The notes: generated by a model not told the origin, from the sequence alone. Counted from the stretch's first letter, positions 16,166 through 61,062 are shown. The stretch: 64,000 nt of DNA from Coriobacteriia bacterium (GCA_034370385.1 JAXMKZ010000044.1:44562-108561); one strand, 5' to 3'. Program-made: numbers and translations.

Positions 16166-16227
16166 GGGTTGGCGGCGCTGGAATCACTCCGCCGACAAGC
16201 ACGGCGTTGAGTGGGTATATTCCGTCT

Positions 16228-16324
16228 GTCTCCGAGCGCTGCGACCTAACGGAACCAACCCACGGTCGCAGAGCCGATAGGGTCGGATGTGGAAACCCTC
16301 CGGCCTCCCGTTCGGAAAGGGGAC
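16228..16324 (+). ncRNA. Candidate molybdenum-cofactor (Moco) riboswitch aptamer
   Basis: P1 is GUCUCC (16228-33) / GGGGAC (16319-24). Two hairpins: CTGCGACC/GGTCGCAG, and GCCG..AGGGU/ACCCU.CGGC. 3' string GCCUCCCGUUCGGAAAGG resembles the E. coli moaA Moco motif as I recall it. No covariance-model search was run. Confidence 0.45.
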
Positions 16325-16481
16325 CCTAGAGGGCGGAGCATTGCGCCCGGTCTGCCTTTCCCGACCAAGGGAAGGGCTTTTCTCTTCCCTGGTGCGGGCG
16401 CAACGGCGTGCGCCCGGAGACCCCCCGCAGAGGGGGTCGAATCGGTCGAAGGAGTTCGACCTGAGGGGAAGGGGCAGCAGG

Positions 16482-42636: not shown

Positions 42637-43545
42637 GTGCAGCCGAGCGTCCTTACGTCGACGATCCTCACGTTTGCCGCGATCGTCGGGGTCGGGGCGC
42701 TTCTGAGGGCATTTCGAGTTCTGCGCGCCGAGGATGCCAAGACGCTCAACGCGGTTATCGTCTACGTGGGTCTTCCGGTGTTCATCTTCCAGGCCGTCCG
42801 TGGCGCTGAGCTCGGCGGCGATGTCTGGCGGGTGGTCGCCGTGGCCTGGATCGCGTTCGCTGCGGCGTTCGGTATCGCCTGGGTGCTCTCGCGCGTGCGC
42901 GCCCACGATCCGCAGCGCAGGGGAGCATTTCTCCTCGCTGCCGCCTTCGGCAACACGGGGTTCATCGGCTACCCGGTGGCGGCAGCGGTTCTCGGCGCCG
43001 CCGCTGTCCCGATGGCGGTGTTCTCCGACGTGTTCGGGACGGTGTTCGCCCTGGTCCTGATCGGGCTGCCTGTCGCGGCCCGGCTCGGCGGCGGGAACAC
43101 GCGAGTCAACCTGGTTCGCGAGCTTCTCACCTTCCCGGCGGTGATCGCTCTTGCGGCGGGGCTGATCGCGCGGCCCCTGCCGATTCCGAGCGCGGTAAGT
43201 TCCGGGTTGGACCTGCTCGCTAATCTCGTGGCGCCACTCATCATGCTGTCCGTGGGGCTCGCTCTCAAACCCCGCTCGCTCGTGCGCGGTGCCGTCGACG
43301 TCGGGCTGGTCTCCGTGGTGCGGCTGGCGCTGGCACCGATGATCGCGCTGCTCGTCGGTGATGTGATGCTGAGTGGTCAGGCACTGCAGGTTGCGACATT
43401 GCAGGCGGGCATGCCGACGATGATGCTCACCCTCGTGGTGGGTGAGCGCTTCGGGCTCGACTCGGACTTCATCGCCTCGGCGATCTTCACGACGACCGTG
43501 CTGTCGGCGGTGACCATCCCGCTGATTCAGGCGGTAGTCGGCTAA
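42637..43545 (+). CDS. AEC (auxin efflux carrier) family transporter
   Basis: 302 aa, about 9-10 TM. ...AAFGNTGFIGYPVA... motif typical of the family. Confidence 0.75.
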   Translation: MQPSVLTSTILTFAAIVGVGALLRAFRVLRAEDAKTLNAVIVYVGLPVFIFQAVRGAELGGDVWRVVAVAWIAFAAAFGIAWVLSRVRAHDPQRRGAFLLAAAFGNTGFIGYPVAAAVLGAAAVPMAVFSDVFGTVFALVLIGLPVAARLGGGNTRVNLVRELLTFPAVIALAAGLIARPLPIPSAVSSGLDLLANLVAPLIMLSVGLALKPRSLVRGAVDVGLVSVVRLALAPMIALLVGDVMLSGQALQVATLQAGMPTMMLTLVVGERFGLDSDFIASAIFTTTVLSAVTIPLIQAVVG

Positions 43546-44301: not shown

Positions 44302-44578
44302 CGCACTCGCTTCCGCCCGGGTCTGTGGTTGCGGGTGCGCAAGCACCCTAGTCCATGGTAGACGCGGCCCAAAGGACCCACGTAAGCCGGCGCCTTCGTG
44401 GCGTCGCGCGAGCATGGCGCGTCTTAGGGGTAAGTCGTACCGTTCGGTCCGGCCATCCAGGCTGGCGGGCGAGAGGGTCACTAGTGAGATTGCATCAAGC
44501 GAACGCCCCGGTATGCGAGTGTGGGGTCAAAGACCAGGTCAGCCGGGCGGAAGCACTCCGGAGACACAAGGGGGCGGC

Positions 44579-49979: not shown

Positions 49980-51323
49980 GTGTGCCGCATGAGTGATGAG
50001 ACTCGAGCCCCTCGCCCCTTCCGAGTCTTCGTTGTCGTTCTTGCAGGAGCCGGGCTTCTGCTGACCGTTCTGTTTTCGGATGCTGCGCGCGGCTTCGATG
50101 CATGGGGTCTGTTGGTTCTCCTTGTCCTCGGGGTGTTTGTCTCGGAGAACTACACCGCAGAGATTGCCGACATCAATGTTGGGCTGTCGTATCCCTTGAG
50201 CCTTGCAGCGGTCGTCCTGCTTGGCCCGGTGCCGGGCGCCGCTGTCGCCGCGGTCTCTGGCGTGAGCGTTTCCGACATACGCCGCGGTCAGACGCTGGAA
50301 GTCATCATCTTCAACGTGAGCCAGTTGGTGGTTGCGACACTGCTGGGCTCGTTCGTCTACTTCTCCCTAGGGGGGCAGCCGCTTGCGTCCGGCGGTGAGC
50401 TTATCCCGTGGGACGCGCGGTCTTTCGCGGACAGCCTGGTTCCTTTGCTCGGTCTTGCGACGGTTTCCGCCGGAGCGAACATGGTTCTGGTATCGGTCGG
50501 GCTGAGTCTGAAGGGCCAAGGTACCGTGGGCTCCACGCTGCGTTCGATGGGGTGGGCTCTCCCCACACAGATTCCGCTTGCCTTCGTTGGCTTCCTGATG
50601 GCTCAGGTGCTTGCGATATCCGTCGTGGCCCTGCCGCTCTTCGTAATTCCGCTCTTCTTGGCGCGCCAGGTCTACCAGCGCTACTCGTACATGCAGGAGG
50701 TCTATCTCGACACAGTGAAATCCCTTGTCTTCGCTCTGGAGGCGAAGGACCCGTATACGCGTGGGCATTCCGAGCGTGTCGCCGGATACTCAAAGTCGCT
50801 TGGCGAGGCAATGGGAATGGAGCCATCCTCGTTGGACCGACTGTTCCGATCGGCCCTGCTTCACGACATCGGCAAGCTGTCAGTTGCATCGAGCGTGCTA
50901 TCCAAGCAGGGCCCGCTGTCGGCGGAGGAAGCGGAACTGATTAGACTGCACCCAGAGCGTGGCGCGCACATGGTGGAGGTGATTCCGACGCTGAACAAGC
51001 TTGCGGAGAATGTCCTCATGCACCACGAGCGCCTGGACGGCAGCGGATACCCTCGCGGGCTTGTCGATGTGGCCATCCCGCTCGCTCCGAGGATTCTTGC
51101 GGTCGCAGATGCATATGACGCCATGACCACGCATCGACCGTATCGTCGGGCGCTGTCACGGGAAGAGGCGACCGCCGAACTCGTGGGCGGTGCCGGCAGT
51201 CAGTTTGACCAAGATGTGGTGCGCGCATTCATCGAGCACAGGGTGGGTGTGCCGGAGCCTCAACACGCGGTGGTCGGCGGCTCGCAATTGCCGGTTGAGG
51301 TCGAGGCGGTGATGGGGTCGTGA
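49980..51323 (+). CDS. Membrane-anchored HD-GYP domain phosphodiesterase
   Basis: 447 aa, about 7 N-terminal TM segments. RGHSERVAGYS...LLHDIGKL...HHERLDGSGYPRG...VADAYDAMTTHRPYR. Start is GTG 49980 or ATG 49989. Confidence 0.9.
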   Translation: MCRMSDETRAPRPFRVFVVVLAGAGLLLTVLFSDAARGFDAWGLLVLLVLGVFVSENYTAEIADINVGLSYPLSLAAVVLLGPVPGAAVAAVSGVSVSDIRRGQTLEVIIFNVSQLVVATLLGSFVYFSLGGQPLASGGELIPWDARSFADSLVPLLGLATVSAGANMVLVSVGLSLKGQGTVGSTLRSMGWALPTQIPLAFVGFLMAQVLAISVVALPLFVIPLFLARQVYQRYSYMQEVYLDTVKSLVFALEAKDPYTRGHSERVAGYSKSLGEAMGMEPSSLDRLFRSALLHDIGKLSVASSVLSKQGPLSAEEAELIRLHPERGAHMVEVIPTLNKLAENVLMHHERLDGSGYPRGLVDVAIPLAPRILAVADAYDAMTTHRPYRRALSREEATAELVGGAGSQFDQDVVRAFIEHRVGVPEPQHAVVGGSQLPVEVEAVMGS

Positions 51324-52432
51324 ACTTGACGAGTCTCTTGTCTACCGAGGTCCTTGCCGCGCTGCAGCAGTTGCCGACCCTTGAAGCGTTGTGGTTCGCG
51401 GTGGCAATTGCACTGCTCGGATACTTCGACATCTCCCTGCCTAGGGGCGACTCGGTTGGAGTAACCGGGGCGCTGGAGGCGGCGGCACTGCTTGCGCTGG
51501 GTTTCTGGGCTGCGGTTCCGGTGATCCTAGGTGCAGCACTAGTTGCCATGATTGCCCGGCACCTTGCTGGTCGCGGCGTACGTGTGCTGTCGGGGCTTGC
51601 ATCGCGGGTAGCGGGGCTGGTCGCCGTCGCGGTACTGCTGCGTGCAGTCGAGGGGGCATCACTTGGGGGATGGGCCAAGACACTCGGCGTCATAGCCGTT
51701 TACGTCGTGGCGGAGATGCTCGCACGTCAGACCGCTGAGGCGCTGCGGAGTCGCCGTTCACTTCGACGACAGGTGCTGGGCGGCTTATCTCTGCAGGCGC
51801 CCCTTGTGCTCGCTCAGTTCTCGACCGCCGCGCTCGTTGCCGTGGTCTATCCGCACATGCAGTCGTGGAGTCTGGTCACAGCCGTCGCCCTGCTCCTTCT
51901 CATTCGTCAGTCGTATCGGCTGCTTCTGGGCGAGAAGGAGACATACCGGATGACGGTGGAGGTGCTCGTTGAGGCGGCCGAGGCCGCTGACGTGAATCGG
52001 CACGGTCACGCCGAGAGAACCGCCTCGATAGCGCGGGCAATAGCGATCAGGTGCTCGTTCCCAAGCAAGGAGATCGAGCGCGTGAGCTACGCTGCGCTTC
52101 TCCATGACATAGCAAGAATTCGAGAGCAGGGGGCCGCCGACTATACGCCGACGACTTCATCGCAACTCCTGGAGGGCGTTGACTTCTTCGAGGATGTCGT
52201 TCGCGTGATGCGCGTGTTCGACGGGCACGTGCCGGAGGAGGCGTCCGCTTCCGCGGCTGACGTACGGGCGGCTTTCGTGGTCGGCCTCGCCAGCGACATC
52301 GATGACGCTGCTCACGGAGCGTACGGCGCGGGGAGTGTGTCGTCGCTCGCAGACATCGTCCCGTGGTCCGTCAAGGCGTCCGCAGTGGGCGCCGCTCTTT
52401 CGTTGGGCTACCAAGTACCCGCGGTTCGATGA
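51320..52432 (+). CDS. Membrane protein with degenerate HD domain (no GYP motif)
   Basis: 370 aa with a polytopic N-terminus. HGHAERTASIARAI...ALLHDIARI is present, but the HHExxDGxGYP block is absent. GTGA overlap with the HD-GYP gene. Confidence 0.75.
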   Translation: MNLTSLLSTEVLAALQQLPTLEALWFAVAIALLGYFDISLPRGDSVGVTGALEAAALLALGFWAAVPVILGAALVAMIARHLAGRGVRVLSGLASRVAGLVAVAVLLRAVEGASLGGWAKTLGVIAVYVVAEMLARQTAEALRSRRSLRRQVLGGLSLQAPLVLAQFSTAALVAVVYPHMQSWSLVTAVALLLLIRQSYRLLLGEKETYRMTVEVLVEAAEAADVNRHGHAERTASIARAIAIRCSFPSKEIERVSYAALLHDIARIREQGAADYTPTTSSQLLEGVDFFEDVVRVMRVFDGHVPEEASASAADVRAAFVVGLASDIDDAAHGAYGAGSVSSLADIVPWSVKASAVGAALSLGYQVPAVR

Positions 52433-52974
52433 TTGCCGCTGGCGCGATCGCGTGGGCGCTGCTGATCGCATGGGCGGCTGGCGGCAAGTTCGCGAATCTC
52501 GCCCAGGTCAGGCTCAGTCACGAGCTTCTAATCGCACTACTCTTCGTCGGTCAGAGCATCTTTCGCGGGCGACTGCCCTTCTGGGATGGCGCAGCCCATG
52601 ATTGGGCCGTCTTCTTCTGGGGCCTGGCCTCCCTCGCGCTGCTTGCGACGTTGATTCCGGATGCGAAGTTGCCTGGAATAGGGGTCGCGATACTGGGCAT
52701 TGCCGCCAACCTTACCGTCGTATTGGCAAACGAGGGCATGCCCTATGTAGCTGCTGGCGGCGCCGTTCTTGATTCAGGTGCCTTCTTCTATCGGACCGGC
52801 ACTATTGGGACCAGCCTGCTGTTCTTGGGCGATGTGCTGCCAGTCCCGAGCGGTGCGTACCTGCTCAGCTTGGGCGATATCCTCCTCGGGATAGGTGTAA
52901 TGGTGTTCATAGTCGCAGGCAGCGTGGCCGGCATGAATGGATCCACAACGGGCACAGGCCGCGCTGGACGTTGA
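52429..52974 (+). CDS. Small polytopic membrane protein (DUF5317-like by recollection)
   Basis: Frame of ORF 52363-52974. ATG 52429 overlaps the upstream TGA (ATGA). About 5 TM segments. C-terminal ...LFLGDVLPVPSGAYLLSLGDILLGIG.... Confidence 0.6.
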   Translation: MIAAGAIAWALLIAWAAGGKFANLAQVRLSHELLIALLFVGQSIFRGRLPFWDGAAHDWAVFFWGLASLALLATLIPDAKLPGIGVAILGIAANLTVVLANEGMPYVAAGGAVLDSGAFFYRTGTIGTSLLFLGDVLPVPSGAYLLSLGDILLGIGVMVFIVAGSVAGMNGSTTGTGRAGR

Positions 52975-53079
52975 GCCTATTCGCTGACCAAGAGAACTGG
53001 GGCAGTATAGTCGGCGGGTGGTCCTTCTTTGCGCAACATTCGGAACGGGTGGGACCCTCGCTTCGGCCGCGCACGCGGG

Positions 53080-53215
53080 ATACTGGGGCACCTTGCCGCG
53101 ATGGACTTTAGGCGGCGCAGCGGCGCCGTCGAGACGTTCCTCCAGCGCAAAGAGGGATTCTCGGAAGATTCCGGGTTCGATCCGTCGTCGCGGACCACGG
53201 CACCATGCCAGCGTT
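53080..53215 (+). pseudogene. Remnant of a BTAD-domain regulator 3' end (paralogous to 56575-56707)
   Basis: ORF 53029-53295 reads ...RSGAVETFLQRKEGFSEDSGFDPSSRTT.... The tail of the 53583 protein reads ...RSGAIETFLQCRGRLSEDLGLDPSSQTM.... There is no upstream domain and no plausible start. Confidence 0.7.
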
Positions 53216-53290
53216 CTCTTGGCATCGGGACGGCCCGCGCCAAGGCAGTTACCGTCCATCTCGATCGAGGCAGCGAGGTCGCACGGATCC

Positions 53291-53323
53291 GGTAAGAAAG
53301 TGGTAAGACCCGCCTGATACGGT
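53291..53323 (+). promoter_or_regulatory. Two GGTAAG boxes phased at 11 nt plus a TACGGT -10-like hexamer (SARP-type activator-dependent promoter candidate)
   Basis: GGTAAG at 53291 and 53302. TACGGT at 53318-53323 lies 9 nt after the heptamer GGTAAGA. Confidence 0.3.
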
Positions 53324-53506
53324 TCACGCGGATCGGAAGACCCCCGATTCAGCGCAGGGCTCGGCGGGTTTCCCGGATAAGGGATCTCACGGGCGGGACG
53401 CGGTCCATTGCAGGTGTGGAGCGGGAGAGTTCCAGAGGGGCACCGCCAGGGCCGTCAAGTAGCCGTTCGAACTCAAGGAGTCTTGCGAGGGTTCCCCCGG
53501 GCGGGG
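53291..53506 (+). repeat. Conserved non-coding block, copy A (upstream of the NTPase-BTAD regulator gene)
   Basis: By my hand alignment it has 10 substitutions and 1 indel against 56786-57002 (~95% identity), including a 63-nt stretch with no change. Confidence 0.9.
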
Positions 53507-53582
53507 CTCGTGGCAGGCCAGCACTGGCACCGCTCGGGGGCACTCCGATACTCTTGTGTCAGAGGGCTGAAGGCCTGGCAGG

Positions 53583-56500
53583 TTGGGTGCCGCCATGTGC
53601 AAGCGGCGCCCCTTCAGGCTGAGCGGAGGTCTCGACGTGCCAGGACATGCTGCGTGCACACTGCCGCCCGACTACTCCTCGTTGGCGCGCAGGGTGAGAT
53701 TGGACCGAGTGATCGACTCGGCCGGCGGACGCCCGTGTGTGATTGCCGCGCCGCCGGGATGGGGAAAGACCGTGGTCGCGTCCCACTATGCTGCGCGGTT
53801 CAACGGATGGACGTGCTGGCTCGACGCTGCGGGGAATTCAGTATCAGAGCAGCTGGTGCTGGGAGCTGTCGAGGGGGCGCGAGAGCGGGCGTGCTTGGAT
53901 CCCAAGAAGGCGGGGTCTGGCATCGTCGTGCTCGACGATCTGTATCTTGGCGAGCATGGCCTTCACGGGCTGATGGAGCTCCAACCGCGCCTAGCGAGCT
54001 TGGGTGCTCGCTTGGTGGTCACCACTCGCTGCCCGTTCCCTTCCGACGCCTCGCCGGGCAGCCGGCTCCCACAGTGCGTAGGGGTGGCCGAGCTGAGGTT
54101 CTCGGGCAAGGAGGCTACGTCGCTGATGGCCTCGTTCGGAATCGAGACGAGTGCGGGCCCCCGCTTGGCGGCGCTTGCAGCGGGCCACCCTGAGGTGATC
54201 AAGCGCCTTGCCGTCCACGATACGACCGAGTTCGGTGACGCTGGGCATGGGCTCACTGACTGGCTCATACGCCATGTGTTGGGGAGCTCGTGGGATGCTC
54301 GGCTGCGGCTCTACAACCGGGTGTTGATGGGATCAGTCGTCCCCGATTGCCGGGCGCCGGTGCGCCGTAGTCCCGAGACCGCGTTTCCTGAGCTCGAGGG
54401 GCTGCATCAGTCGGAGGATTATTCGACGACGGTCACGGCCGCCGTTGTCGAGGCGTTCCGTTCGGAGGGAAGGGACGAGACGGAGTGCGTCCTCAGTGCC
54501 GTCGTGCCGGCCCTCGTCGAGGCGGGCGACCACGAAGGAGCGCTGCGGGCGATCGGGGTGTGCGGGGTACCTGAGCTGACGGCGGCATTGCTGATTCGCG
54601 ACGCGGTTGCGTTCGAGTCGGACGCGAAGGTCAGGGAGCTACTGCAGATCATGGACGACCTTCCCGTGCACGTGATGATGGAGCACGCCTGCCTGGTCGG
54701 CATGTGGGCCCTGGCGCTCTATCGGTCCGGCTTGCTGGAGGATGCGGTGGCCAAAGCCAGGGCATGCCTCAGGCTGTGTGCCGTGGATGGCGACTCCGAT
54801 GTCGCGTCACGGGCGCGGGTGACGCTGATAGATGCGTTGTCGGGTCTTCAGCGCTTTGAAGAGGCCGCAACCGTGATTCGGCAAGATGGTGACGACAGGC
54901 GGACCAGGTCGCTAGCCGAGTCCGTGGCTGCGGCTTGCGTGGAGGCCTACTTCGGTCGTGCCCAGGAAGCGTACGCCGCCGTGGACGCCCTCTCTTCGAC
55001 GGCGTTCGCGCTGGATGTTTCCGACTACGAGCGCCTTCGCTGGGAGCACGCCCGGGCGAGCATCCTGTCGTTGTGCACCGGCGGCTACGACGTGCTGGCA
55101 GCTGATCTAGCAGTCATGATCCCGCGAACGCGTGTCTGGATGCGGGAGTTCGCGCTGATACGTGGGAACCTAGGGCTCGCACTCATGGAGACAGGGCGGT
55201 TAGCACGTGCCGGGGCACTACTCTCCGCTGCGGTCTCATCTGGTATTGAAGATGCGTTCGCTCGGTACTCGGCACTTATGCTCTGCGTCCTCGCTGGAAA
55301 GGGCGATGTCGATCAGGCGCTCGAACTGGTTGTCCAGTGCATTCACGCGTCATCCGAGATGGGCTCTGAAGCCGACCTGGCCGGCAACAGGGTCTACATC
55401 TCCACCGTGCTGCGCGCGGCTGGCGAGCGGGATGAATCCCTCGCAGCGGCTGAGAGGGCCTACGAGCACCTCTGCGTCGTCGACTACATGGGATACCGTC
55501 GTCTCGCGGCCCTCGAAGTCGCTGCGTCCCTGCTGTCGCTTGGCGATTGCGACGCGGCTCGTCGCTGGGTCGCCACCGTGGAAGCGGAGGGTTTCGGCCG
55601 CAACCGCTACCACGCCCTGCGGGCGGCGATGATCCTCGCCGAATGCGATCGCATCGACGGCGAAGTAGAAGCAGGGGTCGCTCGGCTCGCCGGGCACGCC
55701 GAGCACATCCTGTCTGAGAGCTCCAACTGGCAGATGGCGATGTACTGTCGAGCCTTTCCGGGACTGCTCGGGATGCTTGCCGCAGCCGTGACAGTGAAGC
55801 GTCTTCCTGTCCACATGCTACGAATGGTCCTCCCGGAGTACGCTGAGCGCGGGCTGAGGGCGTGCCGCGCGTGGCTGGACGCCGACGAATGGCGGGCGCT
55901 GGGCATGCGCACGCTTGGCGAGACCGGCTTCGGGATGCTCGAGCGGCGCAACGGCGAGCCAATCTGCCGCGTCCGACTGCTCGGCGGTCTCGATGTCGTC
56001 GTCGGGGATCGGACCGTGGGCGAGCGTGACTGGCCCAAGAGAAAGGCCCGACTGCTGTTTGCCATGCTCGTGGTCAAGCGCGGCCACGACGTTCCGCGCG
56101 AACAGATCTTTGAGCACCTATGGCCCGATCTTGACGAGGAGCGGGCGCGCAACAACCTCTACGTCGTCTGGAGTGCCATGAAGCAAGCGCTCATGGGGCC
56201 AACGACTCGTGCGACGAAGTGCCCCTACCTCGAGAACAAGGGCGGGCGGCTCCGGGTCGTGAGCGACGTGGCGCGCTCCGACATAGACGAGTTCGAGGAG
56301 GCCTTGGGGGCGGCGCGGGTCGCAGAGGCCGCCGGCGACACCGATAGGGCGCTTGGCGGCTACGTGCTGCTGGCAACCGTCTACCGAGGCGACCTGCTGC
56401 CGGGAGACATCTACGACGACTGGTTCGCCCCGCTGCGGGACCACTATCGGCTTCAGTTCGTCGACGCGATGACGCGTGCGGCCGAGCTCCTGCTGGAGCG

Positions 56501-56759
56501 CGACGATCCGTGTGAGGCCCTCGTCTACGCGCGGCGCGCACTGGCAGCAGACCCCCTGCGCGAGGATGTCTACCAGCTGGCGCTCAGGTGCCACATCTCC
56601 GCCGGGCAGCGCAGCGGCGCTATCGAGACGTTCCTCCAGTGCCGCGGGCGGCTTTCAGAGGATCTGGGGCTCGATCCGTCGTCGCAGACCATGGCGCTCT
56701 ATCAAGAGATCCTCGTCATGGAGGACAGCCCGCGCTACGACGACTATGGGCTTTGCTAG
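53583..56759 (+). CDS. Large STAND-like NTPase - TPR-like - OmpR-type wHTH - BTAD transcriptional regulator
   Basis: 1058-aa ORF. Start is TTG 53583 or ATG 53595. Walker A APPGWGKT, Walker B IVVLDDLYL, long helical repeat region. wHTH RLLGGLDVVVGDRTVGERDWPKRKARLLFAMLVVKRGHDVPREQIFEHLWPD. BTAD ...YRGDLLPGDIYDDWF...LREDVYQLALRCHISAGQRSGAIETF. Confidence 0.85.
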   Translation: MGAAMCKRRPFRLSGGLDVPGHAACTLPPDYSSLARRVRLDRVIDSAGGRPCVIAAPPGWGKTVVASHYAARFNGWTCWLDAAGNSVSEQLVLGAVEGARERACLDPKKAGSGIVVLDDLYLGEHGLHGLMELQPRLASLGARLVVTTRCPFPSDASPGSRLPQCVGVAELRFSGKEATSLMASFGIETSAGPRLAALAAGHPEVIKRLAVHDTTEFGDAGHGLTDWLIRHVLGSSWDARLRLYNRVLMGSVVPDCRAPVRRSPETAFPELEGLHQSEDYSTTVTAAVVEAFRSEGRDETECVLSAVVPALVEAGDHEGALRAIGVCGVPELTAALLIRDAVAFESDAKVRELLQIMDDLPVHVMMEHACLVGMWALALYRSGLLEDAVAKARACLRLCAVDGDSDVASRARVTLIDALSGLQRFEEAATVIRQDGDDRRTRSLAESVAAACVEAYFGRAQEAYAAVDALSSTAFALDVSDYERLRWEHARASILSLCTGGYDVLAADLAVMIPRTRVWMREFALIRGNLGLALMETGRLARAGALLSAAVSSGIEDAFARYSALMLCVLAGKGDVDQALELVVQCIHASSEMGSEADLAGNRVYISTVLRAAGERDESLAAAERAYEHLCVVDYMGYRRLAALEVAASLLSLGDCDAARRWVATVEAEGFGRNRYHALRAAMILAECDRIDGEVEAGVARLAGHAEHILSESSNWQMAMYCRAFPGLLGMLAAAVTVKRLPVHMLRMVLPEYAERGLRACRAWLDADEWRALGMRTLGETGFGMLERRNGEPICRVRLLGGLDVVVGDRTVGERDWPKRKARLLFAMLVVKRGHDVPREQIFEHLWPDLDEERARNNLYVVWSAMKQALMGPTTRATKCPYLENKGGRLRVVSDVARSDIDEFEEALGAARVAEAAGDTDRALGGYVLLATVYRGDLLPGDIYDDWFAPLRDHYRLQFVDAMTRAAELLLERDDPCEALVYARRALAADPLREDVYQLALRCHISAGQRSGAIETFLQCRGRLSEDLGLDPSSQTMALYQEILVMEDSPRYDDYGLC

Positions 56760-56774
56760 CGACGGGTGGTAACC

Positions 56775-56818
56775 GGTATGTGCGCGGTAAGGAAGCGGTA
56801 AGACCCGCCTGATACGGT
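56775..56818 (+). promoter_or_regulatory. Three GGTA(T/A)G boxes phased at 11 nt plus a TACGGT -10-like hexamer (SARP-type promoter candidate)
   Basis: GGTATG at 56775, GGTAAG at 56786, GGTAAG at 56797, TACGGT at 56813-56818. Begins 16 nt after the regulator stop codon. Confidence 0.3.
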
Positions 56819-57002
56819 TCACGCGGATCGGATGACCCCCGATTCAGCGCAGGGCTCGTCGGGTTTCCCGGACAAGGGATCTCACGGGCGGGGCGCGGTC
56901 CATTGCAGGTGTGGAGCGGGAGAGTTCCAGAGGGGCACCGCCAGGGCCGTCAAGTACCCGTTCGAACCCAAGGAGTCTTGCGTGGCTTCCCCCGGGGCGG
57001 GG
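56786..57002 (+). repeat. Conserved non-coding block, copy B (between the regulator stop and the secA promoter)
   Basis: See copy A. The offset between copies is 3495 nt, the same (within 1 nt) as for the decayed coding remnant, so both belong to one duplicated segment. Confidence 0.9.
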
Positions 57003-57089
57003 TCGGATGACCTATTGGTCCGGCTCCGCTCAGGGGTGGATTTGGCTCCGTGTGGAGCCTGTGGAGGCCCCAGGCGCCCGGCATCCCTG

Positions 57090-57098
57090 TGCTAGAAT
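57090..57098 (+). promoter_or_regulatory. Extended -10 promoter candidate for secA (TGC-TAGAAT)
   Basis: GTGCTAGAATC at 57089-57099, 50 nt upstream of ATG 57148. Same 11-mer as at 44292. Confidence 0.45.
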
Positions 57099-57147
57099 CT
57101 GCAGGGCTTTCGCGCCCCCCAACCCCTCTCAAGAAAGCGCAGTAACC

Positions 57148-59913
57148 ATGGTGAACATCCTGCAGAAGCTCCTCACTCTCGGTGAGGGCAAGCAGATTCG
57201 CGGGTACGAGGGCCTGGTCGCCCAGGTCAACGAACTCGAGCCCGAAGTCGCGGAGCTCGATGACGCGGCTCTGGCAGCCAAGACCGTTGCGTTTCGCCAG
57301 CGAGTCGATCGCGGGGAGGACCTGTCATCTCTGCTTCCCGAGGCGTTCGCCGCGATGCGTGAGGCATCGAAGCGTGCACTGGGGATGCGCCATTTCGACG
57401 TTCAGCTCATCGGCGGAATGGTGCTCAACGACGGCATGATCGCCGAGATGAAGACCGGAGAAGGCAAGACCCTCGTTTCGACGCTCGCGGGCTACCTCAA
57501 CGCCTTGCGTGGCGAGGGCGTCCACGTGGTCACCGTCAACGACTACCTCGCCAAGCGCGATAGCGAGTGGATGGGTCGTGCGTACGCTGCGCTCGGCATG
57601 GATGTCGGGCTCATCCAGTCGCAGATGGATCCGTCGCGCCGAGTTCCTTCGTACCGTGCCGACATCACCTACGGAACGAACGCGGAGTTCGGGTTCGACT
57701 ATCTCCGCGACAACATGGTCGTAGCCCCGCGCGATCGCGCGCAGCGCGGTCATCACTTCGCCGTGGTCGATGAAGTCGACTCGATTCTCATCGACGAGGC
57801 GCGTACCCCGCTCATCATCTCTGGCGCCGGTACCAGGTCCGCTGACGCGTACAAGGATTTCGCCAAGATGATCCCTCGGATGCGCGAGGGTGTGGACTTC
57901 GATCTTGATGAGGCGAAGCGCACGGTCGCGCCGACCGAGGCGGGAATCAAGAAGGCGGAGCAGGCGCTGGGCATCGAGGACATCTATATGGACCCCTCGG
58001 GCCAGATGGTGAACCACCTCCAGCAGGCCCTGAAGGCGCAGTTCCTGTTCAAGTTGGACGTCGACTACGTGGTCAAGGACGGCGAGGTCCTCATCGTGGA
58101 CGAGTTCACCGGTCGCCTCATGTATGGGCGCCGCTACTCAGAGGGTCTCCACCAAGCGCTCGAGGCCAAGGAACGCGTGCACGTGCGCGAGGAGAACCAG
58201 ACGCTTGCGACCATCACGCTGCAGAACTACTTCCGCATGTACGAGAAGCTCTCGGGCATGACCGGCACCGCCGTGACCGAGGACAAGGAGTTCCGCGAGA
58301 TCTACAAGCTGCCCGTCATGGTCGTTCCGACGAACCAGCCGATGGTCCGTGACGACCGCAACGATCTCGTCTATCGCACGGTCCCGGCGAAGTTTGATGC
58401 TGTCGTCGAGGATATCGCTGAGCGCCATGAGGCCGGGCAGCCGTGCCTGGTGGGCACGATCTCAATCGAGAACTCCGAGCGACTCTCGCGTCTCCTGACC
58501 AAGCAAGGCGTGAAGCACAACGTGCTCAACGCGAAGTTCCACGAGCAGGAAGCGCTCATCGTCGCTCAGGCAGGACGCCTCGGGGCGGTCACGATCGCCA
58601 CGAACATGGCGGGACGAGGCACCGACATCATCCTCGGCGGCAACCCCGAGTTCCTCTGGGAGGACATCGTCAGAGAGCGCGGAGTGCAGCCCGAGGATGC
58701 CACTGAAGAGCAGCGGGCCGATGCACTGGAGGCGGCCAAGCGCATCTGTGCGGATGAGCATGAGGCCGTCGTGGGTGCGGGAGGGCTCGCCGTGCTCGGC
58801 ACTGAGCGCCACGAGTCGCGACGCATCGACAACCAGTTGCGCGGTCGCTCCGGTCGCCAGGGAGACCCCGGTGTCTCGCAGTTCTACCTCTCTTTGGAGG
58901 ACGATCTCATGCGCCTCTTCGGAGGCGGTCGGATGGACCGGATCTCGGCGTTCATGGCTAAGGCCGACATCCCTGACGACATGCCCATCCAGGCTGGCAT
59001 GGTCTCCAAGGCCGTCGAGAGCGCGCAGCGCCAGATCGAGGCGATGAACTTCTCGGCCAGAAAGCACGTTCTTGACTACGACGACGTGATGAACAAGCAG
59101 CGCGAGGTCATCTATGCAGAGCGCCAGCGCGTGCTTGACGGTAAAGACATACACGAGCGGGTCGAAGAGCTCATCGGGGACGTCATCGCCTCCAATGTGC
59201 TCACGTTCTGTCCGGAGCGCACCTATTCGGAGGAGTGGGACTGGGACACGCTCGAGCTGTGGTTCCACGACCTGACCGGCATGGGGTCCGAGCCGATCGA
59301 GGCCGCCCGCGGCGACGTGGACAACCCGCACCTGTTGGCGGAGTCCCTCAGTGAGATCGTGCTCGGGGCGTACGCCAACAAGGAGTCCGAGATCGGCCCC
59401 GACCAACTGCGCGAGCTCGAGCGGCACATCATGCTGCGGATCATCGATGCGCGCTGGATGGAGCACCTCCAGGAGATGGACTATCTCAAGGAGGGAATCG
59501 GACTGCGAGCGATGGGCCAGCGCGATCCGAAGGTCGAGTACAAGAACGAGGCCTACGACATGTTCTCCGCGATGGTCCAGGGCGTGAACGAGGACTTCCT
59601 GCGCACCATCATGCACATGCAGGTGGCGTTTGAGCCGGAGCCGGAGCAGGCTCCCGTGCTCAGCAACGTGAACTACTCGGCACCCAGCGAGTCGTCGATA
59701 TTTGCGACGGCTGCCGGTGCAGCCGCCGCGGTTGGCGTCGATGCGCCGTCGCCCGACGCCATCGCCGCCGCTGCCGCTGTGGCTGGTGGCACCAGCAAGG
59801 CCGCTACCGTGGTGAAGGACAAGCAAGACCCCTTCGCCGATGTCGGGCGAAACGACCCGTGCCCCTGCGGCAGTGGGAAGAAGTACAAGAAGTGCCACGG
59901 AGCAGGGGCGTAG
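57148..59913 (+). CDS. secA: Preprotein translocase ATPase SecA
   Basis: Frame of ORF 56911-59913. ATG 57148 gives [28 protein letters not shown] (Walker A), [30 protein letters not shown]-terminal zinc motif [14 protein letters not shown]. Confidence 0.98.
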
Positions 59914-59922
59914 TCGACAGCC

Positions 59923-61062
59923 ATGGTCAACGACCGGACACAAGACATCGCCGCATTGCGCTCCCGCGTCGAGCGCATGGCTGAGTACCTGCACATCGAC
60001 GCCAAGCGCGGCGATCTTGCGGTCCTCGAGGAGAACAGCGCGGCGCCGGACTTCTGGGACGACCAGTCCAAGGCGCAGACCGTCATGGCTCATGCCGCTG
60101 GTCTGCGCGACGAGATCGAGACCTACGAGTCGGTAGTGGCGGTGCTTGATGATGCTGAGGTCGCCAACGAACTCGCCATGGACGCAGGAGACGAGGATCT
60201 GGCCACCGAGATCGACTCGATGCTGTTGGATGCGGCGGGCCGCGTCGACGGTCTTGAGGTAGCTAGCTGGTTCACTGGCGAGTTCGACCCCGGTGACGCC
60301 ATACTCACCATCACTCCGGGCCAAGGTGGCCTCGAGGCCCAGGACTGGGCCGAGATGCTGCTCCGCATGTACACGAAGTACTGCGAGCGCAAGAAGTGGA
60401 AGCTTGACCTTCACGACGCGCCCGCCGGAGTCGAGTTGGGTATCGATCGTGCGGTGTTCACGGTTCATGGACGCAACGCCTACGGGATGCTGCTTTCCGA
60501 GATGGGGGTGCATCGACTGGTGCGCATCAGCCCCACCGACGAGAAGAAGCGTCGCCAGACGACGTTCGCCGGCGTCGAAGTGCTGCCGGTGCTTCCCGAT
60601 GATGTCGAGGTCGACCTCAAGGAAGAGGACCTGAGAATCGACGTGTATCGCTCCAGTGGTCCGGGTGGACAGTCGGTCAATACGACCGACTCCGCCGTGC
60701 GCATCACGCACCTGCCTACGGGCCTCGTCGTGACCTGCCAAAACGAAAAGTCGCAGCACAAGAACAAGGACGCGGCGATGAAGATCCTACGCTCGCGCCT
60801 GTTCGAGATCGAGCGCGAGAAGCGCGAGGCGGAACTCGATGAGCTGCGTGGCCCGAAGCGCGAGATCACCTTCGGCAGCCAGATCCGAAACTACGTTCTG
60901 TACCCGTACCAGCTGGTCAAGGATGTGCGCACGTCCATTGAGACGGGCAATGTCGACTCCGTGCTTGATGGAGACATCCAGCAGTTCGTGGTCGGCTACC
61001 ACCGGTGGCGCGTGCACCAGGAGCAGGCCGATTCCGTTGGCGCAGCCAGTCGGGAGCAGTAG
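59923..61062 (+). CDS. prfB: Peptide chain release factor 2 (uninterrupted ORF, no programmed frameshift)
   Basis: 379 aa. SPF-region ...RISPTDEKKRRQTTFAGVEVLP and GGQ motif YRSSGPGGQSVNTTDSAVRITHLPTG. The N-terminus is continuous in one frame. Confidence 0.95.
   Translation: MVNDRTQDIAALRSRVERMAEYLHIDAKRGDLAVLEENSAAPDFWDDQSKAQTVMAHAAGLRDEIETYESVVAVLDDAEVANELAMDAGDEDLATEIDSMLLDAAGRVDGLEVASWFTGEFDPGDAILTITPGQGGLEAQDWAEMLLRMYTKYCERKKWKLDLHDAPAGVELGIDRAVFTVHGRNAYGMLLSEMGVHRLVRISPTDEKKRRQTTFAGVEVLPVLPDDVEVDLKEEDLRIDVYRSSGPGGQSVNTTDSAVRITHLPTGLVVTCQNEKSQHKNKDAAMKILRSRLFEIEREKREAELDELRGPKREITFGSQIRNYVLYPYQLVKDVRTSIETGNVDSVLDGDIQQFVVGYHRWRVHQEQADSVGAASREQ

Follow-up and report, generated by a model that had tools for sequence, protein, structure and literature searches.

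What is being preserved in a non-coding block that stands twice in one genomic region, once ahead of a regulator gene and once ahead of secA, when the coding sequence attached to one of the two has decayed? The question was raised by a 64,000-nucleotide (nt) stretch of DNA from a Coriobacteriia bacterium (GCA_034370385.1 JAXMKZ010000044.1:44562-108561), which is called the window below and in which coordinates are counted. An earlier interpretation made from the DNA letters alone (the sequence-only reading) had seen in the block a possible activator-dependent promoter with a conserved leader or small RNA, by which the regulator gene and secA would be placed under the same control. We found that the block carries a conserved RNA structure of a previously uncatalogued family, and that it is probably an entire gene, lying on the + strand, whose predicted product is a structured non-coding RNA of ~200-225 nt. 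The copy ahead of the regulator gene is referred to as copy A, and the copy ahead of secA as copy B.

The duplication was confirmed by global alignment, blastn and a repeat finder. Positions 53290-53510 and 56785-57005 were co-linear at an offset of 3494/3495 with 94-95% identity. The high-identity tract contained 10 substitutions and one indel over 218 aligned positions, and a run of 63 nt between the differences at 53398 and 53462 was free of change, as first described. The end of the block had been placed at 53506/57002, which was not borne out. The outer stem of a 3' hairpin, CCCCCGGG(G)CGG ... CCGCTC(G/A)GGGG, is common to both copies and takes the homology to 53541/57036, and the apical part is the sole portion of this hairpin that differs between them. 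Beyond 53046 or 53546, local alignments were no better than those of shuffled sequences, and the left stretch to 53046 was not significant. Exactly two full-length copies were present within the window, as judged by blastn and by the covariance model R1 described below.

Upstream of the high-identity tract lies the duplicated 3' tail of the regulator gene, with 60-78% identity compared with ~95% for the adjoining RNA block. Clear homology of this remnant began at ~53080-53110. The remnant (53046-53289) showed 68% nucleotide identity to 56575-56790, and the repeat finder gave 78% for 53111-53201 against 56605-56695. Along the duplicated segment, the identity formed a mosaic of about 59%, 84%, 65% and 95%, and the high-identity tract started within a few nt of promoter box 2, a functional boundary. 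The translated remnant was 58% identical to the C-terminus of the window's own regulator over 36 residues, and 52% identical to the closest regulator orthologue, that of locus L051, over 44 residues. The attached upstream part is thus the regulator C-terminus, as had been proposed. The decayed tail still lies in an open frame of 99 codons (53018-53317, +) that runs into the promoter boxes of copy A, probably a by-product of the high G+C content.

A consensus structure was obtained by voting over single-sequence folds of 22 diverse family members on a plain MAFFT alignment, and the pairs were counted on the same alignment. In the resulting 70-pair model, 79.4% of the cells held standard pairs, compared with 40-50% when the 3' partners were slid by 1-3 columns. 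Changes on both sides were seen in 47 pairs, against 19-29 in the controls, and none of 500 shuffles attained the observed pairing values. The covariance model R1 has 235 positions and 69 pairs. Re-alignment of 58 sequences with R1 gave 84.7% of cells paired, against 37-48%, with compensatory change in 61 of the 69 pairs; an R1-based alignment leans towards the model, and the MAFFT-only result is the cleaner test. U-G and G-U pairs were frequent, which the opposite strand would read as C-A and A-C mismatches, so the RNA is oriented along the + strand. A conserved structure with compensatory changes across species is what characterizes a structured non-coding RNA, and the suggestion of a conserved RNA of about 200 nt was upheld. 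The median length from P1 to the hairpin end was 208 nt across the family.

The RNA opens with a variable 5' hairpin (P1), followed by a closing helix (P2/P3) with a small hairpin (P3a) and by a long interrupted helix (P4). The tip of P4 is an invariant, purine-rich hairpin of 32 nt with an internal loop, GGUG-N-GGAG[A GGGAGA]CUCC-N'-GAGGGG-GCACC, in which N and N' covary (A-U, U-A and G-C pairs). A short linker leads to a GC-rich 3' hairpin of 15 pairs, whose sequence is free to vary while the pairing is kept (90.8% of cells paired). Copies A and B fold alike, with a fold z-score of -3.3 for copy B. Two hairpin-loop substitutions named in the sequence-only reading are real and sit in the loops of P1 and P3a. 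Rfam 15 gave no match for 52000-58000 at E values up to 1, and none at the element in a whole-window gathering scan. The orthologue in locus L012, searched at E values up to 10, gave only sub-threshold chance matches, and no description of the element was found in a full-text literature search. The impression that the block belongs to no known RNA family was thus sustained by the Rfam scans.

Could the conservation instead act at the DNA or protein level, with the block being protein-binding DNA, an open reading frame (ORF) for a SecM-like arrest peptide, or a miniature inverted-repeat transposable element (MITE)? Arrest-peptide ORFs are known upstream of secretion genes, and in 34 of 52 sequences one frame through the core stayed open over 50 codons or more. 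However, no frame was conserved, indels of 1-2 nt occurred in the core and throughout the element, and the ATG of the copy B ORF was absent from copy A, so a small ORF was rejected. Compensatory base-pair changes, including those to G-U, were the dominant pattern. A MITE or other mobile repeat was rejected on the grounds of the single copy per locus, the fixed context and the absence of terminal inverted repeats, and plasmid and phage collections contained no match to the RNA element. The block did not turn up in many unrelated contexts; there was one copy per locus examined, in a syntenic position, and two in the window only. We regard conservation at the DNA or protein level as very improbable.

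The family was collected with a query of the 22-nt core common to the window and locus L001, GGGAGA-N1-2-TCC-N-GAGGGGCACC, in a scan of 185,579 species with one genome per species. This returned 60 loci, of which 54 were true members by the covariance model. The six discarded loci were five chance matches (Synergistales, Pseudonocardia, Streptomyces, Geomonas and one Actinomycetales metagenome-assembled genome, MAG) and L005, which is on the same contig as L001. The members were nearly all MAGs labelled Coriobacteriia, Anaerosomatales or Actinomycetota, each with one copy. Among the 49 loci for which 1 kb or more of upstream sequence was available, 46 had the regulator gene upstream on the same strand, ending ~90-220 nt ahead of the core; this distance grew to about 700 nt in the seven loci with an extra small gene in between. 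We also noted an extra ~550 nt between the regulator stop codon and the RNA promoter in L003, L026, L030, L046, L053, L059 and L061, apparently a small gene ending in ...FVFAAMRK and finishing right at box 1. The secA start codon followed on the same strand ~175-315 nt 3' of the core, and the RNA was directly upstream of secA in ~47 of 52 loci. Close relatives of the regulator are scarce in the protein database. One of them, 49% identical, is encoded on a syntenic contig of the Coriobacteriia MAG of L001, where block-like sequence was present upstream of secA and none was present upstream of the regulator.

Several loci depart from this arrangement. In L013, the RNA adjoins the regulator yet lies 4.6 kb from secA. 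A 3-kb insert separates the regulator from the RNA in L001 and L018, and in L024 an unrelated Fe-S/Rce1-like gene stands upstream of the RNA in place of the regulator. In L007 (5054-5289, +), from a Coriobacteriaceae MAG, the RNA lies beside glutamine synthetase and glutamate-synthase-like genes, and neither the regulator nor secA is present. These loci separate the RNA from secA or from the regulator and show it to be an independent unit.

An activator-type promoter precedes the RNA, and its boxes and -10 element recur, together with the RNA, in ~52 species of the family, in line with the earlier suggestion. The promoter matrix, anchored on the -10 element, describes a pattern conserved in 42 of 51 promoters. 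Three boxes phased at 11 nt, GG(T/A)(T/A)AG, GGTAAG and G-N-TAAG, begin at matrix positions 11, 22 and 33. Box 3 is followed by 10 nt and by the -10 element TAnnnT at position 49, in which T, A and the final T are invariant, and then by ~6 nt to the first base of P1. The phased boxes reported for the window, two in copy A and three in copy B, were confirmed at their coordinates. The distal box 1 is missing from copy A, where its position reads CGCACG. The gap between the last GGTAAG box and TACGGT is 10 nt, not 9 nt as noted before. No -35 hexamer was found at the normal distance in the family promoters. Transcription is predicted to start ~6-7 nt after TAnnnT, at about 53330 in copy A and 56825 in copy B. 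Starts near these positions had been expected, and they coincide with the 5' edge of the conserved structure. When the start is set 7 nt after the -10 element, the boxes fall at about -50, -39 and -28. Locus L007, which has no regulator nearby, keeps GGTAAG-N5-GGTAAG-N10-TAGGGT.

This geometry is that of SARP-dependent promoters. SARP targets carry direct repeats 11 (or 22) bp apart, with the 3' repeat lying ~8 bp away from the -10 element and overlapping the -35 region (PMC10936776), and the box-to--10 gap here is 8-10 bp, depending on whether a box is counted as 6-8 nt. A generic promoter and terminator scan called neither the RNA promoter nor the 3' hairpin because neither is canonical. The window holds a third match to two boxes plus a -10 element at 43194-43226 (+), GGTAAG-N5-GGTTGG-N10-TAATCT, with 2 mismatches, where ~0.01 such matches are expected by chance. 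As it lies inside a 302-aa ORF (42637-43545), it is probably a chance match and not a promoter.

The protein encoded by the regulator gene has the corresponding domain. An N-terminal P-loop with a Walker-A motif (GWGKT) and a TPR-like middle are followed by a C-terminal SARP domain, composed of an OmpR-type winged helix-turn-helix (wHTH) and a BTAD domain. Pfam located BTAD at residues 900-1044 (E 3e-20), with weak matches to Trans_reg_C (E 0.019) and AAA_16. The last 250 residues aligned end to end with EmbR (2FEZ, E 4e-7) and with the SARP domain of AfsR (8HVR, E 3e-5), so that the winged helix is directly followed by the BTA domain as in SARPs of the AfsR/EmbR type. The C-terminal wHTH-BTAD of the sequence-only reading was thereby verified. 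The N-terminal 732 aa had no match in a PDB sequence search. In the clade whose boxes read GTTyAG, the predicted recognition helix is RAKSN instead of RARNN. This is one clade and a single phylogenetic event, and the co-change of helix and box hints that the regulator may recognize the boxes.

These features suggest how the RNA may be produced and used. The SARP domain probably binds boxes 2 and 3 as a side-by-side dimer, with box 1 as an auxiliary site, and the bound regulator would recruit RNA polymerase in the manner of AfsR on the afsS promoter. The RNA would then be the dedicated output of the adjacent regulator, and the long GC-rich 3' hairpin probably stops transcription upstream of secA's own promoter. 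The RNA then probably uses its invariant core to act in trans on a conserved partner. Our best guess is that the purine-rich module binds a conserved protein or a pyrimidine-rich RNA.

The position of copy B raised the question of whether the RNA belongs to secA. A sequence of the form TG(T/C)GCTA(G/C/T)(A/C)AT was found about 45-60 nt before the secA start in nearly every locus, downstream of the RNA 3' hairpin. In ~50 loci, this extended -10 promoter, TGTGCTAGAAT(C), had no evident -35 element and was followed by conserved features of the 5' untranslated region (UTR), GTGCTTTT and AAGGTG. The idea that the block brings secA under the regulator's control was not supported, as secA has this strongly conserved promoter of its own beyond the RNA. 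Shared control of the two genes found no support either: L013 and L007 carry the RNA apart from secA, and L001, L018, L024 and L007 carry it apart from the regulator.

The element might still be a cis-acting leader of secA, in which the 3' hairpin is a regulated attenuator and the RNA senses a ligand or a protein, and through copy A it would also tune the regulator. The shared strand and the position directly upstream of secA agree with such a leader, and the weak U-tract of the hairpin means that termination may be partial. The invariant core also resembles a binding site more than a simple seed. However, the secA promoter lies downstream of the hairpin, and the spacing between them is far from fixed, some pairs directly abutting and others standing about 100 nt or more apart. 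In L007, L013 and copy A of the window, the RNA was found away from secA, with other genes following it. Each arm of the 3' hairpin was compared with the RNA body in a search for an antiterminator, and no conserved alternative pairing was found (mean z-scores 0.18 and 0.05). The competing terminator and the obligatory linkage of a riboswitch or attenuator leader were thus both missing, and we consider a secA leader unlikely. On the simplest reading, old synteny accounts for the RNA gene standing next to secA, and the two do not form one regulatory unit.

How, then, did copy A arise? Copy B has the position of the single copy in relatives. The closest relatives by SecA identity, L051 (88%), L062 (87%) and L063 (79%), each carry a single RNA copy, and a metagenome scan for close relatives with the duplication returned two loci, both single-copy. 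The gap between the DUF5317 gene and the regulator gene is 608 nt in the window, compared with ~80 nt in L051 and L062, where it holds no RNA copy. From this difference we infer that a segment of ~495 nt, comprising the regulator 3' end, the promoter, the RNA and the hairpin, was copied into the spacer ahead of the regulator in this lineage specifically. An equivalent route would be a tandem duplication of the regulator and RNA in which most of the first regulator copy was afterwards lost.

The two fates ascribed earlier to the duplicated segment were only partly confirmed. The coding remnant has decayed and the RNA was kept close, but the two RNA copies are not equivalent, as every change that the outgroup can decide falls in copy A. 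The RNA bodies differ at 8 of 176 aligned positions (Table 1). With L051 as the outgroup, 5 of the 8 were derived in A and 0 in B, and the three-taxon branch lengths were about 0.043 (A) and about 0.004 (B). The tip of the 3' hairpin was remodelled in copy A, with the hairpin still strong. The 8 changes favoured family-variable positions (mean conservation 0.40 versus 0.60 overall, permutation p about 0.01), and the core, boxes 2 and 3 and the -10 element were unchanged. The pseudogene tail in the A lineage had 15 private changes in its best-aligned 91 nt and was near saturation elsewhere, ~4-8x the rate of the RNA. Continued but relaxed constraint on copy A, weaker than that on copy B, is the favoured and likeliest interpretation.

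Copy A could also be a dying duplicate, whose 95% identity stems from a recent event, the RNA part of an older duplication having been overwritten by renewed copying or by gene conversion. All the polarisable substitutions lie in A (5 to 0); two changes disrupt helices, and another weakens a base pair found as G-C in 95% of family members. Box 1 is missing, the apical part of the 3' hairpin has been replaced, and the R1 score is 22 bits below that of B. The mosaic of identity would fit as well, and so would a B lineage that changed in the tail and hardly at all in the RNA. Yet the changes avoided the family-conserved positions, the 32-nt core, boxes 2 and 3 and the -10 element remained intact, and the family fold was retained together with a strong 3' hairpin. 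The high-identity tract also begins at box 2, and the counts are small, with 8 substitutions in the RNA and 3 B-private changes in the tail. A dying copy A is somewhat improbable on this balance, and relaxed constraint accounts better for what was kept.

Through the insertion, the regulator gene is separated from the upstream operon by a SARP-type promoter and a hairpin, and the regulator may have come to depend partly on its own target promoter through copy A, a positive feedback confined to this genome. Autoregulation of this kind would possibly be a by-product of the private duplication. Taking these strands together, we tentatively propose that this is a new class of bacterial RNA, large and highly structured and with an invariant core of 32 nt, whose only transcriptional input would be a dedicated STAND-like SARP of inverted domain order. 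This would be the first SARP with a non-coding RNA as its direct target; the RNA would act in trans, and the private duplication would rewire the circuit with a potential positive-feedback loop. As a whole, the proposal falls short of being probable.

Several points weigh against the main reading, that of a complete RNA gene served by the adjacent regulator. Three loci carry the RNA without an adjacent regulator, and it is adjacency and geometry that suggest the binding of the regulator to the GGTAAG boxes. No canonical U-tract follows the 3' hairpin (T frequency 0.27 beyond the stem, against a background of 0.155), so transcription may read through into secA from copy B or into the regulator gene from copy A. 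No target or partner of the RNA emerged, and predicted duplexes between the core and the secA 5' UTR were no better than those of dinucleotide shuffles (47 species, mean z +0.42). Finally, the B lineage had 3 private changes in the 91 nt of tail and about 0 in the 176 nt of RNA, although these counts are small. Together with the identity mosaic, this makes it possible that gene conversion later reset the RNA part, which would explain why the RNA is more similar than the tail.

The surroundings of the element in the window are included in Table 1. The three genes ahead of the regulator (49980-52974) have short or overlapping junctions and encode an HD-GYP-type phosphodiesterase (HD_5), a second HD-domain protein and a DUF5317 membrane protein. 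The same set was found in L009, L018, L030, L044, L045, L048, L051, L052, L054, L059 and L062, and it may be the sensory part of the regulator-RNA module. The nearby HD-GYP-type genes make cyclic dinucleotides candidate ligands of the invariant core. A full-length raiA motif RNA (RF03072) lies at 44312-44551 (+; 158 bits, E 1e-39), within the hpf/secA neighbourhood shared with the element and ~9 kb upstream of it. A molybdenum/tungsten cofactor riboswitch aptamer (RF01055) was identified at 16218-16338 (+; 66 bits), and no tRNA or tmRNA was found in the window.

Table 1. Features of the RNA copies, their promoters and the neighbouring genes in the window
Feature	Position	Strand	Basis or remark
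HD-GYP-type gene	49980-51323		Pfam domain search
HD-domain gene	51320-52432		Pfam domain search
DUF5317 gene	52363-52974		Pfam domain search
Decayed 3' end of regulator (BTAD/SARP) gene copy and former 3' flank, pseudogene remnant	53046-53289	+	In-frame tblastn match 53089-53220; three-way site counts place most changes in this copy
Promoter of RNA copy A	53291-53323	+	Matrix of 42 promoters; exact pattern match. Box 2 GGTAAG 53291-53296, box 3 GGTAAG 53302-53307, -10 TACGGT 53318-53323
RNA copy A (derived)	53324-53545	+	R1 full-length match, 118.1 bits, E 1.7e-21
Copy A, P1 hairpin	53330-53350	+	
Copy A, invariant core	53413-53444	+	
Copy A, 3' hairpin	53494-53540	+	-34.9 kcal/mol
Copy A difference, P1 loop	53338		Derived in A (L051 outgroup)
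Copy A difference, breaks P3 pair	53364		Derived in A (L051 outgroup)
Copy A difference, P3a loop	53378		L051 outgroup does not decide
Copy A difference, unpaired	53398		Derived in A (L051 outgroup)
Copy A difference, breaks P4 pair	53462		L051 outgroup does not decide
Copy A difference, G-C conserved in 95% of the family becomes G-U	53473		Derived in A (L051 outgroup)
Copy A difference, linker	53488		L051 outgroup does not decide
Copy A difference, linker	53491		Derived in A (L051 outgroup)
Regulator gene	53583 (TTG) or 53637 (GTG) to 56759	+	Pfam BTAD; start codon ambiguous
Promoter of RNA copy B	56775-56818	+	Matrix; pattern match. Box 1 GGTATG 56775-56780, box 2 GGTAAG 56786-56791, box 3 GGTAAG 56797-56802, -10 TACGGT 56813-56818
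RNA copy B (ancestral, syntenic)	56819-57042	+	R1 full-length match, 140.6 bits, E 5e-26
Copy B, P1 hairpin	56825-56845	+	
Copy B, invariant core	56908-56939	+	
Copy B, 3' hairpin	about 56989-57036	+	-38.2 kcal/mol
secA's own extended -10 promoter, TGTGCTAGAAT	57088-57098	+	Conserved in nearly all loci; bounds the RNA gene and is not part of it
secA	57148-59913	+	Pfam SecA_DEAD, SecA_PP_bind, P-loop_SecA, SecA_SW, SEC-C
prfB	59923-61062		Pfam domain search

To our knowledge, few structured bacterial RNAs of ~200 nt combine strong covariation with a long invariant core, and raiA, OLE, 6S and the riboswitch classes each opened new biology. The RNA described here arrives with a regulatory handle, an AfsR-style direct-repeat promoter and a probable activator encoded next door. 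The duplication also serves as a natural experiment, in which the coding half decayed freely and the RNA half stayed near intact, and which calibrates the constraint on the RNA. If the proposed circuit is true, it has been caught in the course of being rewired by segmental duplication, and SARP regulators extend beyond antibiotic gene clusters, from Streptomyces-like actinomycetes to anaerobic subsurface Coriobacteria, and to RNA output.

Known systems resemble the locus in different respects. The SecM arrest peptide is encoded before secA in E. coli, and the present element shares with SecM and other upstream regulators of secA the strand and the place directly upstream of the gene. It differs in having no conserved ORF, a secA gene with its own promoter, and no predicted pairing with the secA 5' UTR. 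The raiA motif RNA (RF03072) is a structured, independent transcript of ~200 nt without a known biochemical function, found in Actinomycetota, including Coriobacteriia, in the comFC/raiA(hpf)/secA neighbourhood (PMC10861870). The likeness to our RNA is confined to size, neighbourhood and the lack of an assigned function; structure, core and promoter are different, and the genuine raiA RNA of the window occupies a separate locus.

The closest parallel is AfsR-afsS of Streptomyces coelicolor. Both regulators are large, signal-sensing proteins that combine a nucleotide-binding domain and TPR repeats with a SARP domain (OmpR-type wHTH plus BTA). The afsS gene is a small gene immediately downstream of afsR, and a small target gene adjoins the regulator gene here as well. 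Target promoters of the afsS type have a poor or absent -35 element and two 11-bp direct repeats over about -40 to -19, beside a weak -10 element (PMC10936776); boxes 2 and 3 of the present promoter repeat this geometry. The boxes differ in being GGTAAG-like, with a third upstream repeat, and are the predicted binding sites of the regulator. The regulator carries P-loop, TPR and a C-terminal SARP domain in that order, in contrast to SARP, NOD and TPR in AfsR. Our loci come from anaerobic Coriobacteriia-like MAGs and have no antibiotic gene cluster nearby. In its nature, then, the finding is a SARP with an adjacent small target gene, as in AfsR-afsS; afsS encodes a small protein, whereas the target here is a structured non-coding RNA of a new family.

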